In this document: positions 1-38,898 of the stretch, in pieces
Position numbering within the stretch: the first letter of the stretch is position 1
Layout of the letters: each line of letters begins with the position of its first letter
Virus genome (UHGV): UHGV-0110231
Source: a virus
Reading direction: 5' to 3' (one strand)
Length of the DNA stretch: 41,294 nt
Notes under the pieces: generated by a model
What the model saw: only the letters and a program-made list of their open reading frames with translations
What the model was told of the DNA's origin: nothing
The model's database searches: none
Program-made: the position numbers and the translations under genes

Positions 1-53
1 GCGTGGTGTATGACATCAGCGGCAAGCCGCCAGCTACCATTGAGTGGGAATGA
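1..53 (+). CDS. guaA: 3' end of GMP synthase gene (partial; C-terminus ...VVYDISGKPPATIEWE*)
   Basis: In-frame translation ends in the conserved GuaA C-terminal motif PPATIEWE; stop TGA at 51-53 lies inside the att core; gene neighbourhood (yfgI/H/G/F on the other side of the prophage) fits. Confidence 0.6.
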   Translation, partial: VVYDISGKPPATIEWE

Positions 54-55
54 TT
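39..55. repeat. attL core (ATTGAGTGGGAATGATT)
   Basis: Exact 17-bp direct repeat with 38830..38846; overlaps the guaA stop codon. Confidence 0.75.
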
Positions 56-101
56 AACAGCTAACTCATAGCAAATCATTCCTATTCAGATGTCAACTCA
101 A

Positions 102-131
102 CCCTCTGTTTTTGCAGAGGGTTTTTGTTTT
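102..131 (+). terminator. Rho-independent terminator, phage-supplied copy that replaces the native guaA terminator
   Basis: Hairpin CCCTCTG-tttttg-CAGAGGG followed by a T-run; near-duplicate of the host terminator at 38873..38898. Confidence 0.55.
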
Positions 132-188
132 TATGTATTCATTTCTATTCACTCTACACCATATTTTTCGGCGGTACAGGTGACGGTA

Positions 189-203
189 TTACCTTAAAGG
201 TAT
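189..203. promoter_or_regulatory. Operator-like palindrome TTACC-N5-GGTAt upstream of int
   Basis: TTACCTTAAAGGTAT; member of the recurrent TTACC-N5-GGTAA family. Confidence 0.4.
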
Positions 204-245
204 ACTCTCATACCGTCATGAAAATGGTTTCTATATGGGTGAATT

Positions 246-1496
246 GTGCTTACCGATACAAAATTAAAAAACCTCAAGCCGCAGGACAAACTGTACAAGG
301 TCTCCGATCGTGACGGGCTGTATGTAGCTGTGCTTACGTCAGGCACGGTCTCGTTTCGCTATGACTACCGTATCAACGGTCGCCGCGAAACACTGGTAAT
401 CGGGCAGTATGGGCGTGACGGTATCAGCCTGGCAGAAGCGCGAGAAGAACTGATTGCTGCAAAGAAGCTGCTTAAAGCAGGCCAGTCACCGGCTGCGGCT
501 AAACGTGACGGTATCAAAAAGATTCGTGGTGCCGAGACGTTTGCGGTACATACCGACAGTTATATGAAACACGTCATCCTGGCTGACAGTACCCGCGCAA
601 TGAAGCAGGCGGTGATCGACCGTGACATACTTCCGGTTCTTGGCAACAAAATGATGGCTGAAATTACCACATCGATGGTTCGTGATTTGTGTGACCGGAT
701 TGTCGAACGCGGTGGTCGGGCAACAGCAGTACAGGCCAGGGAGATCATCAGCAGCGTATACCGTCACGCCAATGACCGTGGTCATGGTTTGTTTAATCCT
801 GCCGCTGACATTAAACCTTCGTCTATCGCCATATTTAAACCACGAGAGCGAACACTGACACCAGAAGAAATTGGCCTGTTCTTCCGCACGCTGGATGCCA
901 TTGGTGCTATGGGCACTATGAAAATGGCTTTAAAGCTGGTGCTTATCACTATGGTTCGTAAAGGCGAATTCACCAATGCAACGTGGGATGAAATAGATTT
1001 TAAAAAATGGACATGGACAATTCCTTCAGACCGCATGAAGGGAAGCCGGGCGCACGTTATTTACCTGCCTAAACAGGCACAGGATATATTGGTTGGGTTG
1101 CAGATGTGCGCTGGTGGAAGTGAATATCTGGTTCCTGGTCGTTACAATTTCCGGAAGCCATTATCTAATGCCGCGCTGAACTCTCTGATCGACAGAACGG
1201 TGAAAATAATAAATGAAGATGGTGAGCGTATTCAGGACTTCACCGTACACGATATGCGCCGTACAGCAAGTACGTTGTTGCATGAGGCTGGTTATCCTTC
1301 AGACTGGATTGAAAAGGCTCTGGCACATGAGCAGAAAGGTGTGCGCGCCGTATATAACAAAGCGGAATACGCCAGACAGCGCGCCTACATGTTGCAGCAG
1401 TGGGCCGATATGATTGATTCCTGGATTGACGGGGAGCATACGGATCTGATTCCGTTCTCCCCGTCTAAGTTTGAGAAGTTGATGGCGGGGGAATAA
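246..1496 (+). CDS. int: Tyrosine integrase, P4/CP4-57 type
   Basis: 416 aa; N-terminus LTDTKLKNLKP...GLYVAV...FRYDYRINGRRETLVIGQY matches the P4-type arm-binding domain; GTG start; sits next to attL. Confidence 0.85.
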   Translation: MLTDTKLKNLKPQDKLYKVSDRDGLYVAVLTSGTVSFRYDYRINGRRETLVIGQYGRDGISLAEAREELIAAKKLLKAGQSPAAAKRDGIKKIRGAETFAVHTDSYMKHVILADSTRAMKQAVIDRDILPVLGNKMMAEITTSMVRDLCDRIVERGGRATAVQAREIISSVYRHANDRGHGLFNPAADIKPSSIAIFKPRERTLTPEEIGLFFRTLDAIGAMGTMKMALKLVLITMVRKGEFTNATWDEIDFKKWTWTIPSDRMKGSRAHVIYLPKQAQDILVGLQMCAGGSEYLVPGRYNFRKPLSNAALNSLIDRTVKIINEDGERIQDFTVHDMRRTASTLLHEAGYPSDWIEKALAHEQKGVRAVYNKAEYARQRAYMLQQWADMIDSWIDGEHTDLIPFSPSKFEKLMAGE

Positions 1497-1499
1497 CGT

Positions 1500-1694
1500 T
1501 TAATAGTTCTGCTGATTTTCTTCCATCTCTGCTTCTGCTGCCAGTGATTCAATTTTATCTGCGAATATTGCTGACAGTGTTGCAAATTCAGCATCAGTGA
1601 CAGCGGGAACTGGAACAAACCTGATCCCGCTGTGTGCAAGCATGTTTGCAGTTTCAAGACATTTCCTTAAATCTGCTGGTGATGCCCTGTTCAT
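1500..1694 (-). CDS. Hypothetical small protein (64 aa; the longer ORF to 1814 overlaps the methyltransferase)
   Basis: Internal ATG gives a 4-nt ATGA overlap with the upstream methyltransferase stop, suggesting translational coupling. Confidence 0.4.
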   Translation of the reverse strand: MNRASPADLRKCLETANMLAHSGIRFVPVPAVTDAEFATLSAIFADKIESLAAEAEMEENQQNY

Positions 1695-2341
1695 GCTGCA
1701 CGCTCCCGCCCCTGGTTGTCTGTTGGTGACAGCAGAGCATTGCTGAATGCATTTGTTAATCCGCCAATATCCAACGCGTATCCTGGGTGTAGTTGCACTG
1801 CCGGGTCTTCGCACTGATTACCCCAAACATCGAAACCATGAGACGACTGGCGGGCGAACAGTTCAATGCGAGAAACATCGCCTAACAATTGCACAAGTTT
1901 TTCACGAACGACATCTGGTTTTCTTGAATGCTCAAGCCGCGGTGCGGTAAATGACTGAACGATCCCTGCATTAATGCGCGGAGGTAGTTTTCCCTTTACT
2001 GCAAACAGGCAATCTTCACTATTGGCGCGAGTCATGTGTCCCATACCCATAACCAGTTTATCTGGTTGTCGACTACCACATTTTATCCATGTGAAGCCCT
2101 TCATGGTCATCAGACGGAATCCCCAGGCTTCAACAACTTTTAGAGCTTCGAGTGGTTGTGTTGGCACCCACCACATGGCCAACAGACAGTTTTCATCGGC
2201 CAAATCCCACACAGGAAGGCGGCAGATATCCATCACACTCATAACCGGATATTTAAAACCGGCACCGCGATTACCATCTGCGGCTTTGTCCCGGTATACC
2301 CAGGGTGGATCTGCATAGATTAGTGTGTATTTCTTAGTCAT
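1691..2341 (-). CDS. MT-A70-family N6-adenine DNA methyltransferase (orphan)
   Basis: 216 aa; catalytic DPPW motif within TLIYADPPWVY; no adjacent restriction endonuclease. Confidence 0.75.
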   Translation of the reverse strand: MTKKYTLIYADPPWVYRDKAADGNRGAGFKYPVMSVMDICRLPVWDLADENCLLAMWWVPTQPLEALKVVEAWGFRLMTMKGFTWIKCGSRQPDKLVMGMGHMTRANSEDCLFAVKGKLPPRINAGIVQSFTAPRLEHSRKPDVVREKLVQLLGDVSRIELFARQSSHGFDVWGNQCEDPAVQLHPGYALDIGGLTNAFSNALLSPTDNQGRERAA

Positions 2342-2633
2342 AAACCACCCCGCAACATCCTATACCGCTATAGTCGCCACGGCGAAGGCCGTTACCTTTT
2401 GTGATACATTGGTCCCTGCGAACCGCGATCCTTGCACGCTCAACATCACCAGAAGCAACATCCATACACTGAAGCCAAAGGTGAGCGGCAATGCGGAACT
2501 GTCCTTTTTTCTCTCTTTCAATTGCGCGTTTTTCGATCTCTATCGCCGCAGGAGTAACGGCGACAATCTTTGACGGACTGCGCATTGAAACCTTGTTCAT
2601 GTGATATTTTTCAAGTCGGCTTAACTTTCTCAC
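2334..2633 (-). CDS. Hypothetical protein
   Basis: 99-aa ORF in the leftward early operon; overlaps the methyltransferase start by 8 nt. Confidence 0.4.
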   Translation of the reverse strand: MRKLSRLEKYHMNKVSMRSPSKIVAVTPAAIEIEKRAIEREKKGQFRIAAHLWLQCMDVASGDVERARIAVRRDQCITKGNGLRRGDYSGIGCCGVVYD

Positions 2634-2742
2634 TTAATCCAACCCTCTCTGAAAATTAATGCCAGCAGATAAAGCCATGCTGAAACAGAGGACAGGAATA
2701 AGTACCATCCTGACCATTTGCTCCAGTTCCTTAGCAGCACAC

Positions 2743-2991
2743 TCATGCAGCGTTGCTCACAGGACGATATACACGTTGCTGAACAGGAGGCTTTTTACCC
2801 TGAAACTCTGCCGGGCTTGCTGCCTGACGTTCATCAAGCCAACGCTCAACTTCGTCACGGTTCCATGCGCAGCGTTTGTCAGTGATATACCAGCGTTTAG
2901 GAAATTCACCTGCGCGCTCCATACGGTCGATAGTGCTCCATGACAGTGGCACCACCGCCAGGAGTTCCTTCTTACCTAATGCACCTTTCAT
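2743..2991 (-). CDS. xis: AlpA-family excisionase / DNA-binding regulator
   Basis: 82 aa; LLAVVPLSWSTIDRMERAGEFPKRWYI...RDEVERWL matches the AlpA/Xis HTH pattern. Confidence 0.65.
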   Translation of the reverse strand: MKGALGKKELLAVVPLSWSTIDRMERAGEFPKRWYITDKRCAWNRDEVERWLDERQAASPAEFQGKKPPVQQRVYRPVSNAA

Positions 2992-3040
2992 AAATACCTC
3001 TCTTGGTTGCAGTGCGGCGCGCGTGGCGCCGCGGTGGTGG

Positions 3041-3922
3041 TTACATAGATGTTTCGTTTAATTCTTCCCGACGAACGCTGTAAACGTCGGTGGCTTTTGC
3101 CAGCAGTTCGTCATCATCTGAAAGTTTTTGTGCAATGTATTTGTAAGCCTTATCCAGTTCGGAGACAGTGCTGTAATTCATCGCTGCGCTGGTAAAGGCC
3201 ATCAGCATTTCTTCTGGATCACGGCTATCCGCTTTACGCGTTTGCTCATCATGCTTTTTCACTGGTTTAGCGTTGATCAGACTGTTCATTCCCGCAGCAG
3301 TAGTCGTTTGCGGAGTAATGTCTCGCTCAACGCGCGGTGCCGTTTCCTGTAATTCGTCAGGGGTGTAAACACCGAGAAGCACATCAGGAGCGTGCAGGCG
3401 AGCCCATCGTTTCGTGCAAAGATAGGCAAGCTGCTGGCGCGGATCCTGTTCCCACAATGGAGAGTTACGCACTCCGGCTTGCGCCATACTGATGGTAAGC
3501 TCACGGGGTTCTGCTTCTCCTTTAAGAACTGCTGACACAGTTACCGTCAGATTCGGTGATTTATCTGTTTTGCCGTTAACATTCGACCAGTCACCGCTCC
3601 AGCGATAATTCAGGCGTGTCGCCAGCAGGCTGGAAGAGGATACGACCGCGTTTACCAACTGTGCTTCGTAGCCTAACGTTCCGTTTACCACATGCGTTTT
3701 CTGCGCCACGGCGAAAGGGTTCATTCCCCACTGTGCCGCCTGCATGGTCACCGCCAGACAATCGGCAGGTTTGCCTTCAAGATGTTTCGGTACAGTCGCT
3801 TTGCTTTGTGACATCAACTCCGCGAAACGCACCAGTTGATTCATGCCCTCCGGGCTGAAGATTGCCGCAGCAGTACCTACAGTTGCGCCTGGTTGTGATG
3901 TGATTGCGATATCATTGCTCAT
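3041..3922 (-). CDS. RecT/Bet-like single-strand annealing recombinase
   Basis: 293 aa; sits immediately downstream of, and coupled to, the exonuclease gene; RecT-like central region. Confidence 0.6.
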   Translation of the reverse strand: MSNDIAITSQPGATVGTAAAIFSPEGMNQLVRFAELMSQSKATVPKHLEGKPADCLAVTMQAAQWGMNPFAVAQKTHVVNGTLGYEAQLVNAVVSSSSLLATRLNYRWSGDWSNVNGKTDKSPNLTVTVSAVLKGEAEPRELTISMAQAGVRNSPLWEQDPRQQLAYLCTKRWARLHAPDVLLGVYTPDELQETAPRVERDITPQTTTAAGMNSLINAKPVKKHDEQTRKADSRDPEEMLMAFTSAAMNYSTVSELDKAYKYIAQKLSDDDELLAKATDVYSVRREELNETSM

Positions 3923-4740
3923 ACGTACATATCCTGTTTACGTGCCCAGTCAGGGCGTTTAATAATTTCCACGCCGCCCCATTCATCATTGATGCGGCAT
4001 TCGTGATAGGTATTCAGATCCCGGCGGAACAGAGCGTGCCCGGCATCGACATCCGGCGCATCCAGCTCGAACACGCGTACCGGATACCGACCACAATCAA
4101 TGCTTTCGCTCACGGCAAGAAAGAAAAAACCATGCGACTGACCAGTAACCCTCATCGCTCCTTCGCGGTACATTGCGTCCTGCACGTGGTAGCGGAATTC
4201 CTCGATGTGGCGTGCAAAACGATCCATATCTGCAACCTTTTTCACGTCGACGATCACGTTGTGCTCGTTCAGCCATTTGTCTGGACGAATTCGGCACAAC
4301 TCACCAGTCTCTTCATCATTCCAGTACATTGATGCTTCGCAGTAACCAGGTGCTTCCAGCATCCAGCGTGCCGCCGGGTGAGCCATTGCGCTATCACGCA
4401 TCAGCTCCAGTTTCCGCCACTGCTCGGCATCAAGTACCGTAATCCCCATATCCGCTACATCACGAAGAAATGCTTCTTCGTCAGCTTTACCTTGTTTCGT
4501 CCGACGATCGAACTTCGGTGAAACAATGAAGCGTTTGTCGAATTCTCCAGGCTCCAGAAGCAGACAGTGCAATGCGGTTCCCATATCCAGTGCAGACTTT
4601 TTCTCTTCGTCTTCTGGTGCTGCCTGAACCCATTTAAGAAGCGCCGGATTCTTGGCAACCATGTCCAGTTGCGACTTACTCACGCCGTCACCGGCGTGGT
4701 AGTCTTCGTTGCTGATGTCGAAATAAATTCCCGGTTTCAT
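3919..4740 (-). CDS. PD-(D/E)XK recombination exonuclease (YqaJ-like)
   Basis: 273 aa; YqaJ-like N-terminus (FDISNEDYHAGDGVSKSQL) and D...E.K signature (IVDVKK); 4-nt overlap with the annealase gene. Confidence 0.65.
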   Translation of the reverse strand: MKPGIYFDISNEDYHAGDGVSKSQLDMVAKNPALLKWVQAAPEDEEKKSALDMGTALHCLLLEPGEFDKRFIVSPKFDRRTKQGKADEEAFLRDVADMGITVLDAEQWRKLELMRDSAMAHPAARWMLEAPGYCEASMYWNDEETGELCRIRPDKWLNEHNVIVDVKKVADMDRFARHIEEFRYHVQDAMYREGAMRVTGQSHGFFFLAVSESIDCGRYPVRVFELDAPDVDAGHALFRRDLNTYHECRINDEWGGVEIIKRPDWARKQDMYV

Positions 4741-5036
4741 GCCGCTTCCCTCTGCCCATCAATCCGATCCGCCAGATCCCAGCGGGCGATAATTGCCATT
4801 GCCTCGCGCCGGTAGGCATCCATAAGTTCTTCGAACTCAGGGCTGTCTTTAGCTGCCTCCAGCACTTCCTGGCGAACTCCTTTGCCTGTTACAGCGTCAA
4901 AAGTTGAGGCCAGTTGATGAAGCCGGATGCTCTCGATCAGTTCAACTTGTCGGTCATATAGCTGTTCTGACAGGCGGTAGTCCTTGTCGAATGCCAGCAT
5001 GATTTTTTGAAGATTTTTCTGCTGATTAACGTTCAT
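4737..5036 (-). CDS. Hypothetical early protein
   Basis: ORF with GGGAGGG Shine-Dalgarno before the ATG at 5036; coupled to the exonuclease gene. Confidence 0.45.
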   Translation of the reverse strand: MNVNQQKNLQKIMLAFDKDYRLSEQLYDRQVELIESIRLHQLASTFDAVTGKGVRQEVLEAAKDSPEFEELMDAYRREAMAIIARWDLADRIDGQREAA

Positions 5037-5038
5037 TA

Positions 5039-5191
5039 TCAGCCCTCCCATATCTCGTTATCGTTGGCCACATCGCGAGCTTCTTTGCTGACGAAAGCCC
5101 ACTTAATGCCTTCCTGTAAGGTGCGGAACTTCCAGCTCATGAATCCGCATGCAGTAACGCAGTACCAACCGTTGATGATTTTCCACTGCAT
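5039..5191 (-). CDS. Hypothetical small protein (50 aa, Trp/Cys-rich)
   Basis: Not in the ORF track (under 60 aa); has a GAGG Shine-Dalgarno; first gene after the putative leftward promoter. Confidence 0.3.
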   Translation of the reverse strand: MQWKIINGWYCVTACGFMSWKFRTLQEGIKWAFVSKEARDVANDNEIWEG

Positions 5192-5210
5192 AACTTGTTA
5201 CCTCGGTCTG

Positions 5211-5225
5211 TTACCGTTGAGGTAA
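5211..5225. promoter_or_regulatory. Operator-like palindrome (putative PL region)
   Basis: TTACCGTTGAGGTAA; nested in a larger inverted repeat TTACCTC...GAGGTAA. Confidence 0.5.
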
Positions 5226-5272
5226 TAATTATGCGTATTTGGTTTGATGTCAATAGATATGAGTTGAAAAAA

Positions 5273-5287
5273 TTACCTATTAGGTAA
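5273..5287. promoter_or_regulatory. Operator-like palindrome (putative PL region)
   Basis: TTACCTATTAGGTAA, a perfect TTACC-N5-GGTAA. Confidence 0.5.
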
Positions 5288-5300
5288 TAGTATAGGCAAT

Positions 5301-5322
5301 AAAAAAGCCGCCAGAAGGCGGC
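5301..5322 (-). terminator. Rho-independent terminator after the repressor gene
   Basis: Hairpin GCCGCC-agaa-GGCGGC followed by a T-run on the minus strand. Confidence 0.6.
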
Positions 5323-5344
5323 TTACTTACTGAAAAGTATGATT

Positions 5345-5929: not shown

Positions 5930-5984
5930 TTTCTGGAAAATCGCCTCGTATATGAATCAGTAGATGATTCAATTTAAAGCAATA

Positions 5985-5999
5985 TTACCCAACAGGTAA
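5985..5999. promoter_or_regulatory. Operator site 1 in the repressor/cro intergenic region
   Basis: TTACCCAACAGGTAA. Confidence 0.55.
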
Positions 6000-6001
6000 A
6001 T

Positions 6002-6016
6002 GCACCTCATAGGTAA
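6002..6016. promoter_or_regulatory. Operator site 2 (degenerate)
   Basis: GCACCTCATAGGTAA. Confidence 0.4.
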
Positions 6017-6032
6017 CTATCCTTGATTTTTG

Positions 6033-6047
6033 TTACCTTATGGGTGA
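6033..6047. promoter_or_regulatory. Operator site 3, between the putative -35 (TTGATT) and -10 (GAATAT) of a rightward promoter
   Basis: TTACCTTATGGGTGA. Confidence 0.5.
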
Positions 6048-6083
6048 ATATTTATTATCTGAAATAAATATCAGGCAATAGCT

Positions 6084-6314: not shown

Positions 6315-6336
6315 TATCCAGCCACAACCCTCTGTA

Positions 6337-6359: not shown

Positions 6360-6369
6360 ATATCTATTC

Positions 6370-6665: not shown

Positions 6666-6680
6666 TAGCGGAGATTAATC

Positions 6681-7496
6681 ATGAGCAGACATGCAACAGA
6701 TTGGGCCTGGGAGACAGATCCAGGTAGCTCATCATTAAAGCTCATACTGCTCTCGATGGCTGACAGAGCCGATGAATATAACCTCTGCTACCCCAGCATA
6801 GAACGCCTCGTTAAAGACACTTGCCTGAATAAAAAAACCGTGCAGGCCGGGCTTATATCGCTCATGAAAATGGGGCTTATTTCAGATACCGGAGAGAGAA
6901 AGGGAGCGACAAAAAGAGTGCGGGTTTTCTCTCTTAATATAACCAAAAACGGGAACATTAAAGGCAACCGGGAGGGTGGCAATGAACCCGAAAACGGTAA
7001 TGTTACCGAAAACGGGAATATACCCAAAAACGGGATGTTGAATGATCCCAAAAACGGGATGTTGAATGATCCCAAAAACGGGATCCAGAACCAGTCATAT
7101 AACCAGTCATTTAACCAAGAGAGGGAGAGCAGGACAAAAAACGGGGATTCTGTGCATCATGACCCCGGCGCAAACAACGCCGTGATGAATAACTTTGTTC
7201 CTCCTGGTGGGCCAGGGCAATTAGGCAAATTTGTCATGCATGAACAATGGCAGCCATCAGATGACTTTCTTCGGAAAAGCTCATTGCAGGGGATCTACCT
7301 GGACAGTCTGCCAACGGCACAGGAACTTGCAGAGTTCAGAATTTACTGGATGGCTGAGGGTAAGGCATACCATCAGGCACAGTGGGAGCAGAAGCTGGCA
7401 AGGCGGCTGCAGATTAGCAGACAGAAGCAATCAACATTACCTGATAACAACGTTCCGCACTGGAACAGCCCTGAAGCATGGGAGGATTTCTTGTGA
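6681..7496 (+). CDS. Replication initiator (lambda O-like replisome organiser) with N-terminal winged-helix domain
   Basis: 271 aa; N-terminal HTH; iterons embedded in the coding sequence, as in lambda O. Confidence 0.65.
   Translation: MSRHATDWAWETDPGSSSLKLILLSMADRADEYNLCYPSIERLVKDTCLNKKTVQAGLISLMKMGLISDTGERKGATKRVRVFSLNITKNGNIKGNREGGNEPENGNVTENGNIPKNGMLNDPKNGMLNDPKNGIQNQSYNQSFNQERESRTKNGDSVHHDPGANNAVMNNFVPPGGPGQLGKFVMHEQWQPSDDFLRKSSLQGIYLDSLPTAQELAEFRIYWMAEGKAYHQAQWEQKLARRLQISRQKQSTLPDNNVPHWNSPEAWEDFL
6943..7083. repeat. Putative replication origin iterons (CCAAAAACGGGA, at least 5 copies including two exact 24-bp tandem units)
   Basis: Copies at 6943, 7006, 7024, 7048 and 7072, plus variants at 6988 and 7134; they encode the PKNGMLND peptide repeats. 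Confidence 0.6.
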
Positions 7497-14672: not shown

Positions 14673-14749
14673 TGGCGTGGCATGCAGGATTCGAACCTGC
14701 GACCAACCGCTTAGAAGGCGGTTGCTCTGTCCAACTGAGCTAATGCCAC
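14673..14749 (-). tRNA. tRNA-Arg (anticodon UCU), phage-encoded
   Basis: 77-nt cloverleaf read by hand: acceptor GTGGCAT/ATGCCAC, D-arm GCTC..GAGC, anticodon stem ACCGC/GCGGT with loop CTTCTAA, T-arm GCAGG-TTCGAAT-CCTGC, discriminator G, CCA encoded. Confidence 0.85.
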
Positions 14750-24363: not shown

Positions 24364-26876
24364 TGCCAGTCGTACCAACAGTATCCGGACGTCAGGTTGA
24401 GAGCCGTGGAGTTCAGTCAGCAGGCTTGCAGACGTTTTCTCAGCCAGGTATTGGTGATGCTTTTGTTCTGGCAGGGGCAGAGACTATTGATGTTTTTGGT
24501 CAGGCAAAACAGCGTGCCAATATCGCTCTGGCTCAGGAGGCATCTCTTAACCTCAGTCAGATAAGCAGCGATCTGCTGAATAACCCTGAAACAGGGTTGC
24601 TTAACCTGAAAGGGAAAAATGCTATTGGAAAAGGCCATGAGTATACGCAGCAGTTTGATGCTCAGGTCGAACAACTGGCTATGTCGCTGCCGGATGAACA
24701 GGCTCGTAATACTTTCATGCAGCAGGCGCAGCAGCAGCGCATTCAGTTCACTACGCAGGCCGGGCGGCACGAGATAGGGCAAATAAACGCCTACGAAGAA
24801 GGCCAGTTTCAGGCTACGCTGCTGAACAATGGTAAAAATGCCGCAGCATTGTATGGCGACAACGCCGCATACGTATTGGCTAATAAGCAAACTTTCCAGC
24901 AAATTGAGGATTACGGCATTGCGCATGGCTGGAGCGACGAGCAAATCCAGGCCAAGAAAGTCGAGTTTAAAGAGAAGGTTGCTGATGCCGCATTGTCCCA
25001 GTGGTCGGCAAACAATGCGACCGCATTCATCCAAAGTAATGGCGAGTTAAGTGATACTGCTGCTGGAGCTCGCCGTGCTGTAGCAGATAGTGACTCTTCC
25101 GAGCGTGCCCGTGGCATACGCAACAATAACCCAGGAAATCTCGAATACAGCAAAACTAATCCGTGGGTAGGCCAGACCGGTGATGATGGTCGATTTGCTA
25201 AATTCGAAACACCTGAACACGGGATTCGTGCATTAGGGCGAAACCTGATGTCGTATCAGAGGCAGGGTATTGATACCGTCAGCGAGATAATTAATCGCTG
25301 GGCACCGCCTACTGATAAAAATGACACTATGTCGTATATCAAAGCAGTGTGCGAACAACTTGGCGTTTCTGCTGATGAGCCTCTCGATGCATCTAATCCT
25401 GATACCCTGAAGGCGCTTTGTGCAGCCATTATCCATCATGAGAACGGTAGCCAGCCATACAGTGATCAGCAGTTAACTGCTGGTGTCAGTGCAGCACTTG
25501 GTTTATCAACAATTCCAACCAACACCAAACGCTATACCGGTAATGCAGCATTCGATGCGGCATCTCCTGAGGCGCAGGCAAGTTTTATGCGAAAGGCGGA
25601 TCAACTGCGTCGGCAGCAGCAGGCTGAATATAAAACGATGATTGACAGCCAGGTTCGCGATGCGACAGCTGCGTATATGCGTGGCGTTGAATTTCCTAAC
25701 CCACCTGGTGAGGCTGATTTTATTGCAGCTTATGGAGTCAGAGAAGGAAACCTGCGATATACCGAGTTCAGAAATACGCAAATCGCCGGACAGTATATAG
25801 GCTCTTTCCGCAACATGCCGACAAGCAGCATTACAGCATATGTTGAGCAATTACGCCCGGATACTGGTGAGACAGGGGAGGGTTATGCGGCACGAGCCGC
25901 TCTTTATGACAACGTTGTGTCGGCTGCAAATCAGGTGATAAAGCAGCGACAGGCTGATCCTGTACAGTTCTCTCTTGCCGCCGGACAGGCAAAGCCTATC
26001 GACATGAGCAATAAGGATAACTTTGGACAGAGCGTTGCCTTGCGTGCTGCTCAGGTCAGTGACCTTGCTAAGTCATATGGCACTCCACTGACGTTCTTTT
26101 CCAAAGACGAGGCCAATCAGATCGGTGTTTTCTTTCGTGATGCGCCCGTTTCCCAACAGGCAGCATATCTCGATACCATCAGGCAGAGCACTGGTGGTGG
26201 GCAGGTGTATATGTCAGCACTACAGCAGATCAGTGCCAACGCTCCATCTGCTGCCGTTGCCGGGATACTGATGGATAAGCCAGGTGGTATTTTGGCAGAA
26301 AAAAACTGGTTTAATCCGGATGTTTCCGTGTCTCCTGAAACCGCTGCGCAGACAATTCTTGCTGGCGCGGCGGCTCGTAAAGGTACTGATGACGCGAAAG
26401 GTATTCCGATGCCTAAAGATGCTGATCTCCGCCTTGAGTTTTCTGACATGGTGAAGGATGCATTTGCTGGTGATGCTCAGGGGGCATCAATGGCATACGA
26501 GATCGCAAAGGACTATTACGCTGGTGTGATGGCGAAAAAAGGCGTGGTATCAGGCGAAATTGACAATGATATCTGGAAACAGGCTGTTAACGTAGCTACA
26601 GGTGGCGTGCATGACTATAACGGAATGGGGAATGTTCTTTTGCCGTGGGGAATGTCTGCAGAGCAATTCGATAAGCAGGTTAATCAGGCTTGGAATGAAC
26701 AAGTTGTTGGCACAGGGATAAAAACACCGCCTGGTCAGTATGGTTTGCAAAGTTACGGCGATAGTCAGTACCTGGTGAAACTTGGTACTGGTTATCTGCT
26801 AAAAGATGATGGTTCTCCCGTTGTTCTTGATCTGACACAGAAGCGTCAGAGATTCTCCGGAGATATTCCGCAATGA
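24363..26876 (+). CDS. Large internal virion / ejection protein
   Basis: 837 aa from the ATG at 24363 (TAATG overlap with the previous stop). Confidence 0.55.
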   Translation: MPVVPTVSGRQVESRGVQSAGLQTFSQPGIGDAFVLAGAETIDVFGQAKQRANIALAQEASLNLSQISSDLLNNPETGLLNLKGKNAIGKGHEYTQQFDAQVEQLAMSLPDEQARNTFMQQAQQQRIQFTTQAGRHEIGQINAYEEGQFQATLLNNGKNAAALYGDNAAYVLANKQTFQQIEDYGIAHGWSDEQIQAKKVEFKEKVADAALSQWSANNATAFIQSNGELSDTAAGARRAVADSDSSERARGIRNNNPGNLEYSKTNPWVGQTGDDGRFAKFETPEHGIRALGRNLMSYQRQGIDTVSEIINRWAPPTDKNDTMSYIKAVCEQLGVSADEPLDASNPDTLKALCAAIIHHENGSQPYSDQQLTAGVSAALGLSTIPTNTKRYTGNAAFDAASPEAQASFMRKADQLRRQQQAEYKTMIDSQVRDATAAYMRGVEFPNPPGEADFIAAYGVREGNLRYTEFRNTQIAGQYIGSFRNMPTSSITAYVEQLRPDTGETGEGYAARAALYDNVVSAANQVIKQRQADPVQFSLAAGQAKPIDMSNKDNFGQSVALRAAQVSDLAKSYGTPLTFFSKDEANQIGVFFRDAPVSQQAAYLDTIRQSTGGGQVYMSALQQISANAPSAAVAGILMDKPGGILAEKNWFNPDVSVSPETAAQTILAGAAARKGTDDAKGIPMPKDADLRLEFSDMVKDAFAGDAQGASMAYEIAKDYYAGVMAKKGVVSGEIDNDIWKQAVNVATGGVHDYNGMGNVLLPWGMSAEQFDKQVNQAWNEQVVGTGIKTPPGQYGLQSYGDSQYLVKLGTGYLLKDDGSPVVLDLTQKRQRFSGDIPQ

Positions 26877-31937: not shown

Positions 31938-31956
31938 CTTATCTTCTCCATGCAAT

Positions 31957-32132: not shown

Positions 32133-34922
32133 ATGACGGTCTCAACCGTAGTTGACCATAACGATTACACCGGGAACGGCGTTACGACATCCTTCCCGTA
32201 TACCTTCCGCATTTTCAACAAATCTGACCTGGTTGTTCAGGTGGTTGACCTTGATGAAAATATCGCTGTGCTAGCTCTTGATACTGATTACACAGTTACC
32301 GGGGCTGGAGGGTATAACGGTGGTAATGTAATTCTGTCGAAGGCGTTGGCTAACGGTTATCAGATTTCTATATCACGAGAACTCCCGGTTACGCAGGAAA
32401 CTGATTTGCGTAATCAGGGTAAGTTCTTTGCTGAGGTGCATGAAGACGCGTTCGATAAACTGACGATGCTGATACAGCAGGCGTACAGTGTGTTCCGCCT
32501 GGCGCTTCGCAAGCCGTCCAGCATCGCGAATTGGTACGATGCATTGGGAAACTACATCCGTAATGTGCGTGACCCTCGAGATCCTCAGGATGCGGCCACA
32601 AAGCATTACGTCGACTCATTAAGTGCAGGAAATACATCACATACTGATTTGTTATTTAGTAGAACATTGCGTACCGCAGAGAGCATCCCGCAACTTCCAT
32701 CTGTGGAGTCGCGAAAAAATAAAATTGTTGGCATGGATAACAACGGTAATCCCATAATGTTATTGCCTGAATCAGGAAGCGCGGCTGATGTCATGATTGA
32801 ACTGGCAAAAAATAGCGGAGCTGGGCTGATAGGATACAATGATACAGAGGAATACCCAGATGGAACGGTTGGCGATATTCTCAATAGACGACCTTTCGTT
32901 CAACTTTCTGATTTCGGCGTTACTGGATCTGGCGATGAAACAGAGAAGGTTAGATCGGCACATGCCAAAGCCAATGCTCGAGGCGTTCCCGTTATCTATG
33001 ATGTCTCTGAAGTTACTCTTGATGCAAAAGCAAACATAGAAGTCAGAACATCAGTAGACTTTAATGGTTGCATTATCCATCCTGTATTTTATGGAACGCC
33101 ATCTTACGACACAACGCCGACTTATTCGTTGCTAGGTAAAGCGTCTGAAAACGTGACATCAAAACTGTCACAGTCTGGTATGCGTAAGGGTGAAATGGCC
33201 CTTTACGGCGGTATGGCATCTTATAGTCGTGGAACATTCTGGATGGATACACGAGACCCTTTATGTAAACGTAGTCTCTCCGATGTGACCCCAAACCACT
33301 ATAAGACAACGATAAACCGCATCACGAAGTATGGTGGTTTACAGTATCCACTTGAGCATGATTTTACTGCATCACCTTCTCCAGAGGCCTACTTCAGACC
33401 TGATGAAGACTTCTGGTTGAAAGTTGAAGGCGCTCACATTGATACGTCTGGTATGACGTCAGGTGTTGTTTTTAAAGCATTAAGGTCCCAAGTTAAGTTT
33501 TCAGACATAACTGTACGGCAAGACGACAATGTTAAGATGACAAACATCCGGCAAATATTTTATCTCGGTGATGGTGTTAGCCAGATAAGATTTAATGACG
33601 TATCAGCAGAGGCTATGTCGAGCTATAACGCGAACAATGGCACATATCTGTTAAGCAGCAATTATGCGGCAGAGATTATTCTAGATAATGTTAATGCTGT
33701 GCAAGGTTGGGGTGCTCTCGGTCTTCATAAAGTGAGAGATTTGACAGTTACTAATTCAACTTTAAATCGGGTAGATGGACATTATCATATTTTCGACATA
33801 GACGTTAATCACACTAAGTTACACGAGTTCGGTGTACTCATTGGTGCTGGTGGAGGATACCTTCGTGTAACAAATTGCACTAAGTACCTCGGCACTCAAA
33901 CAGACCTAACTGGGACGAGCGGGACTGCTATAGATAAGACACGCCGAAGTGTCATCTATATGCGAGACGATTACGGTAGCTATTTTGACGGGGATATCAC
34001 CGTCGACAACGTAGTGTATAAAATGTCCAGAGAATTATCATTTGCTTCTGCATCCGAGGAGTGGCCAGGTATTCTGTCCTGTGTGTCGTTCAATGCCGGG
34101 GTTAGTACAACAAGTTCAACAACTCCTGATTATGGCTATACAGCACCAGTTCCGTGGGGGACAACTGTCACTGTTAAAAACATTACGGTAGAAGTGTTTA
34201 GGGATTCAATACTGGATTCATGGCTCACTTTTGTAGCTGTTAACTACAACGGGAATTACATACTTCCCAGCGTGTTAATGCCAGCAAGTATCACTGTGAA
34301 AGATATTAAATATAGCAAACCTCCGAGGACTGCGAAAATAGCACCCGTCATTCTCCCGGATTTACGTGGAACAACTGCGGCAGTTGCCTCTGCTAATAAT
34401 CGGGCTTTCTTTAACTCAATAATTAATATTGAGAATATTCAAAGTGGTTTTGCAAAAGACCGTCAAATCGGAGCTCTGAATACTGGGGTCCAGACACTTA
34501 TGTGCATGTATACTCAGACAGAGATATCTAACTTCCCTACTCCGTCTGTTGTTCCAGAAATAAATGTGCGTAACTTTTATGGCTTTTCTGGTAAGTTTGA
34601 CATTCCAGGAAGACTAAGCCTAACGGACTGCTTCGTCATTTCTCTGACCGACTCATCTGGTGGCAGAAATGCAGATTCTTTTATAAAAGTATCCGGAGGG
34701 TTTGTCTACGCGTTGCCTAGTTCTTCTGGTGGTTCTTCATCACAGCTACCAAGAGCCGAGTGGAATTCTGTTAGGTTTATTAAAAGCCCTGTCTCTCCAG
34801 ACCTAACTGATTACGACTCAATACAGGGTTGCACATTCGAAAATGGCAATCCACCGATAGGGATAACAGTGGCACTTGCGTTTTCAGGAAGTGTTGGTGA
34901 CGCTGCTAATAGATTGCAATAA
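32133..34922 (+). CDS. Tailspike / receptor-binding protein
   Basis: 929 aa; N-terminal particle-binding domain (MTVSTVVDHNDYTGNGVTTSFPYTFRIF...) followed by a long Ser/Thr/Asn/Gly-rich beta-helix-like region. Confidence 0.75.
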   Translation: MTVSTVVDHNDYTGNGVTTSFPYTFRIFNKSDLVVQVVDLDENIAVLALDTDYTVTGAGGYNGGNVILSKALANGYQISISRELPVTQETDLRNQGKFFAEVHEDAFDKLTMLIQQAYSVFRLALRKPSSIANWYDALGNYIRNVRDPRDPQDAATKHYVDSLSAGNTSHTDLLFSRTLRTAESIPQLPSVESRKNKIVGMDNNGNPIMLLPESGSAADVMIELAKNSGAGLIGYNDTEEYPDGTVGDILNRRPFVQLSDFGVTGSGDETEKVRSAHAKANARGVPVIYDVSEVTLDAKANIEVRTSVDFNGCIIHPVFYGTPSYDTTPTYSLLGKASENVTSKLSQSGMRKGEMALYGGMASYSRGTFWMDTRDPLCKRSLSDVTPNHYKTTINRITKYGGLQYPLEHDFTASPSPEAYFRPDEDFWLKVEGAHIDTSGMTSGVVFKALRSQVKFSDITVRQDDNVKMTNIRQIFYLGDGVSQIRFNDVSAEAMSSYNANNGTYLLSSNYAAEIILDNVNAVQGWGALGLHKVRDLTVTNSTLNRVDGHYHIFDIDVNHTKLHEFGVLIGAGGGYLRVTNCTKYLGTQTDLTGTSGTAIDKTRRSVIYMRDDYGSYFDGDITVDNVVYKMSRELSFASASEEWPGILSCVSFNAGVSTTSSTTPDYGYTAPVPWGTTVTVKNITVEVFRDSILDSWLTFVAVNYNGNYILPSVLMPASITVKDIKYSKPPRTAKIAPVILPDLRGTTAAVASANNRAFFNSIINIENIQSGFAKDRQIGALNTGVQTLMCMYTQTEISNFPTPSVVPEINVRNFYGFSGKFDIPGRLSLTDCFVISLTDSSGGRNADSFIKVSGGFVYALPSSSGGSSSQLPRAEWNSVRFIKSPVSPDLTDYDSIQGCTFENGNPPIGITVALAFSGSVGDAANRLQ

Positions 34923-34927
34923 AAAAT

Positions 34928-34953
34928 TGGCTGGGAATTTTAATCCCCAGCCA
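34928..34953. terminator. Bidirectional terminator between the convergent tailspike and acyltransferase genes
   Basis: TGGCTGGG-aattttaat-CCCAGCCA hairpin with an A-run on one side and T-rich sequence on the other. Confidence 0.55.
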
Positions 34954-34958
34954 GCATA

Positions 34959-36761
34959 TTAATTTATTTTTGATAAAAGATACTTACCTACTATTTTAGA
35001 ACCATCACTAGAAAGATGCCCACCATCAAAATAAACCGGTTTATCATTATGAATAACCATGCACTTCCCATTCTTGCACAGCTCGTCTTTAGGATTTATT
35101 ATCTTATAAGAGGCAAGCCCATCCCCTGAGTTCTCTATAAATAAATCATCAAGTTTTGTGCTCTTTATATCTACTAAATTTTTGCAGCCATCAAGTATGT
35201 GTCTAACTGGAAGTCTATTTCCATTCATGCAAGAAACAACGTCATAGTTTGGATGTTGGTAATTTCCTATTACATACATTCTTTTATCTTTATTAATAAG
35301 TTGTCGCCACTTGTTTATTTGTGAGAGTATAACATTATTATATGATGACTTACTTACATAATCTCCATGACGACTTATTAATTTATCATTATATCTCTCC
35401 CAGTTATGAGCAAGTATTATAGTGTTTGATTTCGATTTATTTATCTCATTGATTGCTTTTTCATACATCGAATAGCATCCTGATTCTTCTTTAGCATAAT
35501 AATCAGGAAGAATTGGGCATGACACTAACGAAATAAATGTTGCATTTATACCTTCACTGTCAATAAAGTCAATGAATTGCTGTGAGTAGCTATCACCAAC
35601 AAAAATAATGCCATCCTGTTTGCTTGATTCATTCAAATGCAAAATCTTTCCATTTGCCTTACCAAATAGTCTGTGTCCTCCATATGACGTATCCACCTTG
35701 CTACTTATCCTTGATGGAGCACCGGCGTAAAATATTGATGATGATATTAACATCATAAATATATATGAAAACAAAATAATATTTATATTTTTAACTTTAG
35801 ATTCAACTAAATGATGAAGTATTAATGATAAAGTGAAAACAATAAACAAATAAAAAAATAACCCAACCTCAATATTTAACTTTCTGAAAAACACTATGAC
35901 AGGCCAATGCACAAGATAAATCGAATAAGAAATTATTCCTATGTACTGTATTACTCTGTTTCTAAAGAATGAATTTTCGTTCATTCCTGAATGTATTACA
36001 AGCATAGCTCCGACAACAGGCACTATTGCATTTACGCCAGGCCACGCCATCGTGTCATTATAAATAATGAATGATAACAGTATCAATACAACACCAAATA
36101 TCTCTCCAATCCTATTTAATTTTAATTTTTTATTAATCACATAAACTATTGCCCCGCCCATCATTTGCCAGGATCTTCCGGGGAGAGAATAGTATGCAAA
36201 TTTACTATGATTGAATGCTTGATATATAGAAAGCGCAAGCGATAAAACGAATATTGAGTAAATAAGAACAACTCTATTGCTTCTATTTTTTACGAGATAT
36301 AAAAAAATTGGGAATAGTATATAGAATTGCCATTCAACAGAAAGTGACCACGTATGAAGTAGTATTTTGCTTTTTGAGTCCGAATCAAAATACCCACTCT
36401 CAAATGCATACACATAATTTGATATGAATGACATGCTTGATAGCATATGCTTTCCAAGCATTTTGTATGATGTTACATCAAGTGATACAAAACCTATTAT
36501 TGAAGTAAACAAAACAACTGCAATAAGTGCTGGTATAATTCTTTTTACTCTTGATGTGTAAAATTTTTTAAATGAAAAGTTACCATTATCCATCCCATTC
36601 ATTATGATGGAGGTCATAAGATAACCTGATATCACGAAGAAAATATCTACGCCAGCAAATCCACCCGGTAACCACTGCGGATTAAAATGAAAAATCACAA
36701 CAGACATGACTGCTATAGCTCTCAGTCCGTCAATATCCTTTCTGCGTTGAATGGAAGGCAT
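34959..36761 (-). CDS. Membrane acyltransferase-3 (OafA-like) with C-terminal SGNH domain; putative O-antigen acetyltransferase
   Basis: 600 aa; N-terminal acyltransferase-3 motifs (DGLRAIAVMSVVIFHF), multiple TM helices, soluble C-terminal domain; strongly AT-rich compared with the rest of the prophage. Confidence 0.75.
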   Translation of the reverse strand: MPSIQRRKDIDGLRAIAVMSVVIFHFNPQWLPGGFAGVDIFFVISGYLMTSIIMNGMDNGNFSFKKFYTSRVKRIIPALIAVVLFTSIIGFVSLDVTSYKMLGKHMLSSMSFISNYVYAFESGYFDSDSKSKILLHTWSLSVEWQFYILFPIFLYLVKNRSNRVVLIYSIFVLSLALSIYQAFNHSKFAYYSLPGRSWQMMGGAIVYVINKKLKLNRIGEIFGVVLILLSFIIYNDTMAWPGVNAIVPVVGAMLVIHSGMNENSFFRNRVIQYIGIISYSIYLVHWPVIVFFRKLNIEVGLFFYLFIVFTLSLILHHLVESKVKNINIILFSYIFMMLISSSIFYAGAPSRISSKVDTSYGGHRLFGKANGKILHLNESSKQDGIIFVGDSYSQQFIDFIDSEGINATFISLVSCPILPDYYAKEESGCYSMYEKAINEINKSKSNTIILAHNWERYNDKLISRHGDYVSKSSYNNVILSQINKWRQLINKDKRMYVIGNYQHPNYDVVSCMNGNRLPVRHILDGCKNLVDIKSTKLDDLFIENSGDGLASYKIINPKDELCKNGKCMVIHNDKPVYFDGGHLSSDGSKIVGKYLLSKIN

Positions 36762-36801
36762 TCTTACCTCTAAACATTGATTATTATTTTATAAGATAAT
36801 A

Positions 36802-36816
36802 TCACCCAGAAGGTAA
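36802..36816. promoter_or_regulatory. Operator-like palindrome between the acyltransferase and the lysis cassette
   Basis: TCACCCAGAAGGTAA. Confidence 0.45.
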
Positions 36817-36921
36817 TTTTGGTAAGAACAATTTTGGGTATGTTTAACCACATATGGTTTATTGTGTATGATGAACTCACCAACTAAGGGGGTTCTTTAT
36901 GCGTATTAAACGGTGGTCACT

Positions 36922-37326
36922 ATGTCTGCATCGCTAACCGCTGACACAATAAATCAGGGGCTTAGCTACGGAGCGTTGGCGGCAGTGGTCGCTGGGGTTC
37001 CTCCAGAGGTGGCGTTAGGTTCGCTGGCAGGCGCGGTAATTTTCGTTACCTCTGCCGTCGAGTATCCAGTTAAGCGCCGCGTCCTGCTTTCTCTTCTCAG
37101 CTTTCTCTGTGGCTTGCTCTTCTATAAACCTACTGCCTCTATCCTGATCGGTGTTGCCAGCTTGATCCCAACAATCACGCAGGAATCGTTCGAGAGAGGC
37201 GTGGTATTTTCTGCTGGTGCATTCGTGTCGGCAATCGTCGCGGTACGTGTTGGCATCTGGCTTTATCACCGTTCCGATAATCCACGCGAATTAATTCCGG
37301 GGAGAAAAGACGATGACAACTCATGA
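36922..37326 (+). CDS. Holin-like membrane protein
   Basis: Several TM segments and a charged C-terminal tail; alternative GTG start at 36913. Confidence 0.5.
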   Translation: MSASLTADTINQGLSYGALAAVVAGVPPEVALGSLAGAVIFVTSAVEYPVKRRVLLSLLSFLCGLLFYKPTASILIGVASLIPTITQESFERGVVFSAGAFVSAIVAVRVGIWLYHRSDNPRELIPGRKDDDNS

Positions 37327-37621
37327 GCTGCTTTTACTGATTGCCAATGCGGTTATCTGTTCTGCGATAGCAATCCGCGTCGGAACCTTCCGGCGTAATG
37401 GCTCACAACACCGCCGGTGGGGTGGGTGGATAGCCTACTTCCTTATCGTGGCATCCGCCAGCATCCCCGTCCGCGCCGCATATGCAATCTGGTATCACAC
37501 ACCAATGGCCGCTGATTTATCAGAGGTCATCATCAATGCTGTCATGCTTGCCGCCGTTCTGAAGACGCGCGGTAACGTCGTGCAGATATTCAAAATATCG
37601 AGGTCTCAACATGGACATTAA
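37313..37621 (+). CDS. Holin / antiholin-like membrane protein
   Basis: 102 aa with about 3 TM helices; immediately precedes the endolysin gene. Confidence 0.55.
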
Positions 37622-38240
37622 CCAGTTCCGGCGCGCAGCCGGTATCACTGAGCAACTGGCCGCACGCTGGTATCCACACATCACTGCAGCAATGAATGAA
37701 TTTGGCATTACCAAGCCAGAAGACCAGGCGATGTTTATTGCGCAGGTCGGGCATGAGTCCGGAGGTTTTACCCGGTTGCAGGAAAACTTCAACTACAGCG
37801 TGAGTGGGTTGTCAGGTTTCATCCGCGCCGGGCGTCTCACTCTGGGCCAGGCCAATGCTTTGGGCCGCCGTGCTGGTGAACCATCGTTACCGCTGGAGCG
37901 CCAGCGCGCAATCGCAAATCTGGTGTACAGCAAACGCATGGGTAACAATGCTCCAGGCGATGGCTGGAATTACCGTGGGCGCGGGCTTATCCAGATTACC
38001 GGTTTGAATAACTATCGTGACTGCGGAAACGGTCTGAAAGTTGACCTGCTGGAGAATCCTGAACTGCTGGCGCAGGACGTATACGCGGCTCGTAGCGCGG
38101 CGTGGTTCTTCTCCAGCAAAGGCTGCATGAAGTATACCGGAGATATTGCACGTGTAACTCTGATTATCAATGGTGGCCGGAACGGCATTGATGACCGGCG
38201 CGCGCGATACATCACTGCCAGTAAGGTGCTGACGGTATGA
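37611..38240 (+). CDS. Endolysin, glycoside hydrolase family 19 (chitinase-like)
   Basis: 209 aa; motifs [12 protein letters not shown] and ENFNYS are characteristic of GH19 lysins. Confidence 0.75.
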
Positions 38241-38719
38241 TCCTGACATTCGTAAGAGCATATTGGAAACAGCTGCTTATCGTGTTGATGCTTGCTGCTC
38301 TGTTCATCGTCGGAGTGGTTGCCTGGAATATACACGGCAGCCGCCAGTACGATGCCGGGTATGCGCAGGCGGAAGAAGACCGCAAAGCCGAAGATGAGAA
38401 TGTTCGTCAGCACTATGAACAGGAGAAAGCGATCAATGAACGCAAAGCGCAGCAGAGGATCGACCAGGCGCGCAATAATGCTCTTGATGCTGCCGCTCGC
38501 GCTGGCCGGTTGCAGCAACAGCTCGTTGCCATCCGTGAGCAGCTCAGGCAGTATAACGCCATTGTCGGCGCTGGGACGTCAGCCACAGAAACCGGAGTTT
38601 TGCTTGCCGACGTGCTCAGCAAATCTCTCGAGAGAAACAGACAACTGGCAGAGTATGCTGACCGGGCAGCCGAAGCCGGAAGAGTCTGCGAAAAACAGTA
38701 TGACACCCTGACCAGATAG
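38237..38719 (+). CDS. Rz-like i-spanin
   Basis: 160 aa; N-terminal TM helix then coiled-coil periplasmic domain; ATGA overlap with the endolysin stop. Confidence 0.7.
38478..38711 (+). CDS. Rz1-like o-spanin lipoprotein, embedded in the +1 frame of Rz
   Basis: [16 protein letters not shown] has a lipobox (LAGC); Pro/Ser-rich mature part. Confidence 0.6.
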   Translation: MLLMLPLALAGCSNSSLPSVSSSGSITPLSALGRQPQKPEFCLPTCSANLSRETDNWQSMLTGQPKPEESAKNSMTP

Positions 38720-38829
38720 CATGGTATTTTTCATGGTACTGATTTCCGGTGACGGTATATAAAACGGTACGAGGAAAATTGAGCTTTGGAAAAATGTGAT
38801 CACTCAATTGGTTATGGTGCCCGTAAATA

Positions 38830-38846
38830 ATTGAGTGGGAATGATT
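38830..38846. repeat. attR core (ATTGAGTGGGAATGATT)
   Basis: Exact repeat of 39..55. Confidence 0.75.
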
Positions 38847-38872
38847 TGACCCTGCACTATGAATGAACAAAA

Positions 38873-38898
38873 CCCTCTGTTACTACAGAGGGTTTTTT
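38873..38898 (+). terminator. Native host terminator of guaA, displaced by the insertion
   Basis: CCCTCTG-ttacta-CAGAGGG followed by TTTTTT. Confidence 0.6.

Follow-up and report, generated by a model that had tools for sequence, protein, structure and literature searches.

The stretch of viral DNA analyzed here, the 41,294-nucleotide (nt) genome UHGV-0110231 (below, the window), carries a prophage of the phiV10/epsilon15 type inserted at the 3' end of guaA, and directly after the left junction the prophage presents a hairpin that resembles the guaA terminator it has displaced. We hold it to be highly probable that this is a phiV10/epsilon15-type prophage at its known guaA site and that the hairpin is a replacement terminator, a look-alike most likely of host origin rather than an element recognized during integration. 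The argument has three parts, namely, the junctions, the likeness of the two hairpins, and the question of what that likeness is for.

The junctions are defined by a 17-base-pair (bp) repeat, ATTGAGTGGGAATGATT, with two exact copies in the window against zero expected from shuffled sequences. The features that frame the insert, including the left and right attachment sites (attL and attR), are as follows.

1–53, plus strand: 3' end of guaA, its last 16 codons (VVYDISGKPPATIEWE) with the TGA stop at 51–53; positions 3–53 translate as VVYDISGKPPATIEWE* and are identical to annotated guaA.
39–55, plus strand: attL core copy, ATTGAGTGGGAATGATT, an exact repeat equal to the published core of the phage (attP) and bacterial (attB) attachment sites of phiV10, epsilon15 and ZX5.
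56–38829, plus strand: Uetakevirus (phiV10/epsilon15-like) prophage, 38,774 bp between the core copies, by DNA identity and Pfam.
246–1496, plus strand: P4-type tyrosine integrase gene (int), by Pfam Arm-DNA-bind_3, Phage_int_M and Phage_integrase.
38830–38846, plus strand: attR core copy, 17 bp, an exact repeat.
38937–39476, minus strand: yfgI (DUF5384), convergent with guaA in the empty site.

Read in the guaA frame, the core is ATT GAG TGG GAA TGA plus TT, that is, the four final codons, the stop and the two bases after it, and guaA therefore keeps its reading frame on insertion. A preliminary description of this DNA had placed the core over the last codons and stop of a guaA-like gene and had taken the coding sequence to survive. 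Translation, the 100% identity of positions 1–55 to annotated guaA in many Escherichia coli genomes and the annotated order guaB-guaA-yfgI bear out both statements.

Evidence for the empty site comes from a reconstructed attB, in which window positions 1–55 were joined to 38847 onward and searched for in 5426 complete E. coli genomes. The reconstruction has single-piece, full-length matches at 100% identity, lying between annotated guaA and yfgI, and one such empty site (L003) shows the order guaB-guaA-yfgI-yfgH-yfgG-pdeF, in agreement with the window's right flank. The alignment to an unoccupied locus that the preliminary description had proposed thus rejoins the flanks into a contiguous guaA-yfgI region, with the junctions where they had been predicted and with guaA as the left gene. 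The reciprocal reconstruction, an attP composed of the prophage right end, one core and the left end with the first ~455 nt of int, has a contiguous 1262-nt match to free phage genomes, at 95–96% identity for phiV10, vB_EcoP_ZX5 and O157 typing phages 9 and 10, 85% for epsilon15 and SPN1S, and more weakly for Klebsiella and Enterobacter phages. The phage spacer is found in attL and the host spacer in attR, which places the crossover within the core. The P4-type integrase would accordingly have carried out the exchange between the attP core and its 17-bp counterpart, identical in sequence, at the guaA end. By the core repeat, attB, attP, integrase, and structural and lysis genes alike, the window is a phiV10/epsilon15-type prophage at attB-guaA.

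The window's left junction, the guaA end followed by the phage hairpin region, recurs in 569 of the 5426 genomes. The attB query is split into two places in ~870 genomes, and as only 569 have an epsilon15-type left junction, several hundred E. coli genomes appear to carry some other element at guaA. Variation in the target itself was also seen. In many enterobacteria the guaA stop is TAA, as in Citrobacter portucalensis (L357), Salmonella enterica (L361 and L362) and many attR flanks, so that in such hosts the identity between attP and attB is only ~13–14 bp (ATTGAGTGGGAAT) and integration swaps the host TAA for the phage TGA. Because of this replacement, search patterns ending in TGA recover only occupied sites in TAA-stop hosts, and an apparent occupancy of 24/28 in a metagenome scan was discarded as an artefact.

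The second part of the argument concerns two predicted terminators, one on each side of the insert.

100–132, plus strand: phage-borne intrinsic terminator (predicted), stem 100–109/114–123 followed by TTTTTGTTTTT, by consensus scan and fold.
38869–38899, both strands: native bidirectional guaA/yfgI terminator (predicted), AAAACCCTCTGT TACT ACAGAGGGTTTT, by fold; now downstream of the phage lysis genes.

In the phage hairpin, CCCTCTG at 102–108 pairs with CAGAGGG at 115–121 within a 10-bp stem, AACCCTCTGT/GCAGAGGGTT, that spans 100–123, contains five G-C pairs and is followed by a T-run to 132. The hairpin is co-oriented with guaA, lies 46 nt past the guaA stop, is terminator-like by consensus scan and has a predicted folding energy of -16.4 kcal/mol (z -5.6). 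The native hairpin has CCCTCTG at 38873–38879 and CAGAGGG at 38887–38893, then T6, with a predicted energy of -17.8 kcal/mol (z -5.6) and, on the minus strand, -19.3 kcal/mol. As it folds on both strands, it fits a terminator common to the convergent guaA and yfgI genes; the simple consensus scan does not flag it, probably since the stem/tail rule uses up part of the T-run. The bidirectionality of the native hairpin depends on an upstream A-run, which is missing from the phage hairpin. In Rfam, neither hairpin nor the att region has a matching family, and hits below threshold are noise.

Aligned without gaps, phage positions 95–126 and native positions 38866–38897 are identical at 27 of 32 places. 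The stems are the same, the loops differ (TTTTTG in the phage, TTACTA in the native copy), and the likeness runs into the flanks (AAC...A.CCCTCTGTT). Hence the displaced terminator does have a near-copy after attL, as had been described, with the same CCCTCTG/CAGAGGG stem. That description fits the stem but not its register with the core, since the hairpin begins 46 nt past the guaA stop in the phage and 24–26 nt past it in native E. coli. When the phage segment 88–135 (48 nt) is used as a BLAST query against the 5426 genomes, it finds exactly one place per prophage-free genome, and in the two strains checked, K-12 MG1655 and 2011C-4251, that place is the guaA-yfgI intergenic hairpin (24/27). 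On this search the likeness of the phage and guaA terminators is non-random, because the only match in a 4.6-megabase chromosome is the very terminator that the phage displaces.

This specificity bears on whether the likeness could instead reflect convergence or coincidence, with no common ancestry. Such an account draws on the small amount of independent shared sequence, only ~10 nt once it is considered that the 3' arm follows from the 5' arm and that the T-run is generic, as well as on spacers that are not homologous and on other guaA-targeting elements that work with unrelated stems. We consider it unlikely in view of the single BLAST match in a prophage-free genome, the extension of identity into the flanks and a resident copy in S. 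enterica, discussed below, that is identical to the phage copy at 27 of 27 positions and has the same +46 offset. Prophage loss through recombination between the two hairpins was also considered and rejected. No full-identity match to a synthetic scar (guaA, phage spacer, hybrid hairpin, yfgI) was found in the 5426 E. coli genomes, the best matches being ordinary empty sites with an 18-nt gap at 91%.

Conservation within the phage lineage indicates the level at which the hairpin is constrained. We aligned 39 unique P' arms, the segment between core and int, from phages and prophages of several enterobacterial host genera. The 5' arm of the stem, AACCCTCTG, is invariant in 39/39, and the 3' arm shows A-to-G changes only, in 10/39, giving U.G pairs in plus-strand RNA; in minus-strand RNA the same changes would give C.A mismatches. 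Covariation is thus one-sided, with no double changes. The loop varies freely, and the 14 nt directly upstream of the hairpin have only 62% pairwise identity. An invariant 5' arm, changes that keep RNA pairs and a variable loop fit a plus-strand RNA terminator.

The preliminary description had gone further and counted the shared terminator-like segment among the features that mark the attachment site. Here the evidence says no, and comparison of the sites indicates that integration does not use the look-alike for recognition. Past the 17-bp core, attP and attB are no longer identical. The distance from guaA stop to hairpin, 46 nt in attP and attL, is 24–26 nt in E. coli attB and ranges from 19 to 61 nt across host attB flanks. 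Global alignments with 500 shuffles, comparing 5 phage and 8 host core-to-hairpin spacers, gave no significant phage-host score (shuffle z about 0 or negative, and differing lengths); extended attP/attB homology beyond the core was rejected, as the spacers align no better than shuffled controls. Moreover, at three attR junctions of related phages (L389, L416 and L424) the host guaA terminator is a GCCCGC-type hairpin, and the L416 flank is no mobile element but contains a convergent gene of alpha/beta-hydrolase-like type. L167, at one time taken as an attR in a host without the CCCTCTG hairpin, was dropped, since a ParA-like ATPase is encoded in its flank, which may itself be another mobile element.

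The arm-type repeat of the attachment site is a different motif, GTGACGGTAT, with 13 matches in the window against 1.5 expected, clustered at both prophage ends. The copies placed near the junctions and int are listed here.

180–189 (plus strand) and 210–219 (minus strand, one mismatch): inverted pair of arm-type repeats GTGACGGTAT, upstream of int.
415–424, 505–514 and 758–767 (minus strand): further copies of GTGACGGTAT.
38749–38758, plus strand: GTGACGGTAT in the P arm; position agrees with the epsilon15 annotation.

These sites correspond to putative "integrase" binding sites annotated in the epsilon15 record, and the hairpin contains no GTGACGGTAT. As a candidate component of the attachment site the hairpin therefore differs in position between attP and attB, is absent in its CCCTCTG form from some of the attB sites used and does not match the arm motif; on offsets, spacers, other host hairpins and arm motif alike, a marking role is unsupported.

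The strongest form of a marking role would have the integrase, or an accessory protein, recognize the CCCTCTG-N6-CAGAGGG dyad in both attP and attB and so help define the target. Seven-bp inverted arms with a 6-nt spacer do resemble a tyrosine-recombinase core site in geometry, none of the 39 P' arms shows a change in the 5' arm of the stem, the same stem adjoins guaA in many host genera, and a putative integration host factor (IHF) site overlaps the hairpin in the epsilon15 record. A dyad read as DNA would nevertheless be broken by the A-to-G changes that preserve U.G pairs in RNA. Its variable offset in host attB flanks, the unrelated spacers, a crossover clearly inside the core, the GCCCGC-type hairpins at the L389, L416 and L424 junctions and an arm-type repeat of other sequence add to this, and together they make recognition of the dyad very improbable.

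What the hairpin does can be approached from its surroundings. In the genomes of free phages it stands between two genes of its own strand, with Rz ~170 nt before it and int ~110 nt after it. Every guaA-targeting relative that we found, with integrases 53–71% identical, has a hairpin and T-run 41–47 nt past the guaA stop, and the sample includes other phage lineages (Int 64–71% identical) as well as GIsul2-like islands in Citrobacter, Pseudomonas and others (Int 53–54%). Their stems, GCCCGCG, CCATCAG and others, are unrelated to that of the window. Because all these relatives keep a hairpin at the same position, islands included, the role on the lysogen side is probably the conserved one. Most likely the phage hairpin is a plus-strand intrinsic terminator for phage late transcripts and, in the lysogen, for guaA transcripts before they reach int.

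A narrower account would have the hairpin serve solely to end the phage's late lysis operon before int, with guaA termination in the lysogen as a by-product. The location between Rz and int in free phages suits this account, as does the report that lysogeny by ZX5 brings no change in growth or phenotype (PMC9782041). The GIsul2-like islands have no lysis operon upstream of attP, yet they keep the hairpin and T-run at +45 to +47, and a phage-side role does not exclude a guaA-side role. We therefore see restriction to phage use as possible but rather doubtful.

The reading that we prefer, a replacement terminator acting on both sides of the life cycle, can be set out as a sequence of steps. In the free phage, one strand carries in order the lysis genes, the P arm, the core, the P' arm with an inverted core copy (anti-core) and a terminator 46 nt past the TGA of the core, and int, and the hairpin would end late transcription before int. 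Integration splits the att region, and the two terminators thereby exchange transcription units. In the lysogen the phage hairpin would probably end guaBA transcripts and spare int and the convergent early genes from read-through, and the native hairpin, which now follows the phage lysis genes, would still serve yfgI. On this model the phage hairpin would be a lineage trait held by selection on the plus-strand RNA, and its match to the enterobacterial guaA stem would most likely go back to descent of the P' arm from captured guaA-flanking DNA. The earlier proposal that insertion preserves guaA termination is upheld as far as the arrangement goes, with a predicted terminator following attL and the native one displaced to attR; that transcripts actually end there is a prediction.

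Several considerations weigh against this reading. The case for host descent draws on only a 9–10 bp stem and flanking A/T, next to spacers of no detectable homology. Full invariance of the 5' arm without compensatory double changes exceeds what a plain terminator would need and leaves room for a second, sequence-specific role, and the epsilon15 annotators did put a putative IHF site over the hairpin. Termination, read-through and insulation of int are all predictions from the modelled arrangement, and the host names of loci from IMG/VR and metagenomes were assigned by sequence similarity.

Insertion affects the guaA message in one further respect. The P' arm contains the following feature.

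74–89, plus strand: inverted near-copy of the core ("anti-core") in the P' arm, pairing with 40–55.

Positions 40–55 and 74–89 are predicted to pair in the guaA mRNA of the lysogen as a 15-bp stem, with the guaA stop codon enclosed by it. Over 39 unique relatives, 95% of its pair cells are kept, two pairs alternate between G-U and G-C, one double change, from T-A to G-C, occurs in five sequences, and the epsilon15 record labels the place a putative RNase III site. Insertion thus leaves the guaA coding sequence intact, and the mRNA acquires another 3' end.

To place the hairpin among its host counterparts, native guaA flanks were recovered through YfgI homologues and through the attR junctions of related proviruses. 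The stem (A)AACCCTCTG/CAGAGGGTT(T) is present in the native flanks of Escherichia, Klebsiella-like and Citrobacter-like hosts, with one outer stem pair changed compensatorily from A-T to G-C in the Citrobacter-like flanks. The occurrence of the same stem in several host genera means that the guaA terminator which the phage hairpin resembles is conserved in enterobacteria and not peculiar to E. coli.

Two S. enterica assemblies (L361 15520–15910, minus strand, and L362 10460–11570, minus strand) show a different arrangement. There guaA ends in TAA and is followed 46 nt past the stop by AACCCTCTGTTTTTGCAGAGGGTTTTT, which is 27/27 identical to the window's phage copy and stands at the phage-type offset. 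About 42 nt past this hairpin lies TGACGGTA, which is arm-site-like and in the register seen in Klebsiella-type phages (local alignment z = 2.6). Beyond TGACGGTA the assemblies diverge, with an IS3 fragment, DUF2251, DUF1254/DUF1214 genes and lineage-specific genes, and a second hairpin adjoins yfgI past the divergent stretch. In Salmonella bongori (L355) only 324 bp separate guaA and yfgI, the guaA-proximal hairpin is different, and the S. enterica arrangement is missing. The comparison suggests that the S. enterica guaA terminator is the fossil left junction (attL) of an epsilon15-family element. One may go further and view the terminator as a module passed from host to phage, as a captured guaA terminator fixed at +46, and in S. 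enterica from phage back to host, as a fossil attL; we advance this tentatively, at somewhat less than even chances. If it is true, phage-derived DNA now provides the terminator of a core housekeeping operon in S. enterica. Loop and stem variants common to phages and Salmonella are not claimed as a sign of ongoing exchange, since they amount to two binary sites for which recurrent mutation suffices.

The remainder of the prophage agrees with its assignment. The first 25 kilobases have 97–98% identity over 81–89% to phages phiv142-3, PAS61, ZX5, HEMP4 and TL-2011b, and Pfam matches include a portal, an epsilon15-type GP7 capsid, a holin, a GH19 endolysin and Rz. The insert also encodes a CI-like repressor and an AT3-SGNH acyltransferase. 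Its lysis cassette (37313–38719) comprises three genes.

37313–37621, plus strand: holin, by Pfam.
37611–38240, plus strand: GH19 endolysin, by Pfam.
38237–38719, plus strand: Rz/DUF2514, by Pfam.

The cassette is read towards attR, in the order known from phiV10, namely, endolysin, Rz, att, terminator and int. The acyltransferase (34959–36761, minus strand) is a 600-amino-acid AT3 protein fused to an SGNH domain and adjoins the tailspike gene; it is probably an O-antigen acetyltransferase of the kind that phiV10 has (serotype conversion, superinfection immunity). Elsewhere in the prophage, both ARAGORN and Rfam find a tRNA-Arg gene (anticodon UCU) at 14673–14749 on the minus strand, and about five 24-nt direct repeats with a consensus near GAATATACCCAAAAACGGGAT, at 6935–7087 within an early-region open reading frame (6681–7496), look like the iterons of a replication origin.

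Much of the arrangement is already on record. The ZX5 study gives attgagtgggaatgatt as the attP/attB core at the guaA 3' end, the same core having been established earlier for phiV10 and epsilon15 (PMC9782041). The phiV10 GenBank record has a rho-independent terminator at 26781–26813, between Rz and int, and the epsilon15 record annotates the same stem-loop as a terminator at 26795–26824 and adds putative sites for Int, IHF and RNase III. The core, the guaA target and the phage terminator are thus published or annotated, and the arrangement is mostly known. Discussion of the likeness between the phage hairpin and the host guaA terminator was not found in the literature covered, which did not extend to Kropinski 2007 (epsilon15) and Perry 2009 (phiV10).

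Against this background, we can confidently annotate the window as a phiV10/epsilon15-type prophage at attB-guaA and give its junctions exactly, and the same left junction is present in about one-tenth of complete E. coli genomes. It offers a worked example of how an element may enter a highly expressed housekeeping operon without harm by bringing its own stop region and terminator, with the host terminator reused for phage lysis genes. Beyond the literature, the analysis adds that the likeness of the phage hairpin is specifically to the guaA terminator conserved in enterobacteria, that a terminator ~46 nt past the core is conserved in all guaA-targeting relatives of the integrase that were found, and that the target nonetheless appears to be defined without the hairpin. 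A further, modest new point is the possible fossil junction in Salmonella. The understanding of site-specific integration is unchanged by these findings.

Among known systems, the Uetakevirus phages epsilon15, phiV10 and vB_EcoP_ZX5 are the closest, sharing with the window the 17-bp core, the target at the guaA 3' end and the order Rz, P arm, core, P' arm with terminator, and int. The window's loop ends in G (TTTTTG), whereas that of phiV10 ends in A, and the window's copy differs from the phages in being integrated in another E. coli strain and in its cargo and early regions (81–89% coverage).

More distant is the GIsul2 type of island, which likewise inserts at the guaA 3' end (PMC9376610). 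These islands share the target, with GAGTGGGA lying within the window's core, and have an integrase 53–54% identical over its full length, with int ~300 nt past the guaA stop in the same orientation and a hairpin and T-run 45–47 nt past the stop. Unlike the window they are not phages, their stem is GCCCGCG/TGCGGGC, their arm repeats are of the TCTGGCA type, and their hosts reach Pseudomonas and beta-proteobacteria. A widespread island family at the same guaA core (L039, L046, L055, L033, L110, L074, L061, L255, L269 and L272), from Citrobacter, Pseudomonas, Halopseudomonas, Candidimonas and metagenomes, with TCTGGCA-type repeats, a GCCCGCG hairpin 45–47 nt past the stop and an integrase 53–54% identical ~300 nt downstream, is probably the GIsul2 family. 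One island locus labelled Gordonia (L059) looks like a misassigned or contaminating contig. In IMG/VR proviruses L151, L187, L132, L166 and L193 an epsilon15-like attR is followed directly by a GIsul2-like left end, making tandem occupants of guaA. Another IMG/VR locus, L218, has upstream of the core a chimera of phage P arm and guaA 3' end, TCATAAACTTGTTTTCAGTCAATTGG joined to CGGCAAGCCGCCAGCAACG, which may be an assembly artefact or a rearranged junction.

In phage lambda, sib retroregulation depends on an RNase III stem that adjoins attP. The window is similar in that a conserved RNA stem-loop, formed by core and anti-core, straddles att and is assembled or split by integration. It differs in that int is transcribed away from attP, so that the targets of the stem would be late operon or guaA transcripts rather than int mRNA, and cleavage of the stem by RNase III is only putative.

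Finally, elements that insert into the 3' end of a gene, as those with P4-type integrases do at tRNA genes, reportedly carry a replacement 3' end for it. The window follows this rule in that the element restores the displaced end of its target and the gene stays functional. It departs from the rule in that the target encodes a protein, of which only four codons and the stop are duplicated, and in that the replacement extends past an unrelated 46-nt spacer to a look-alike of the host terminator.

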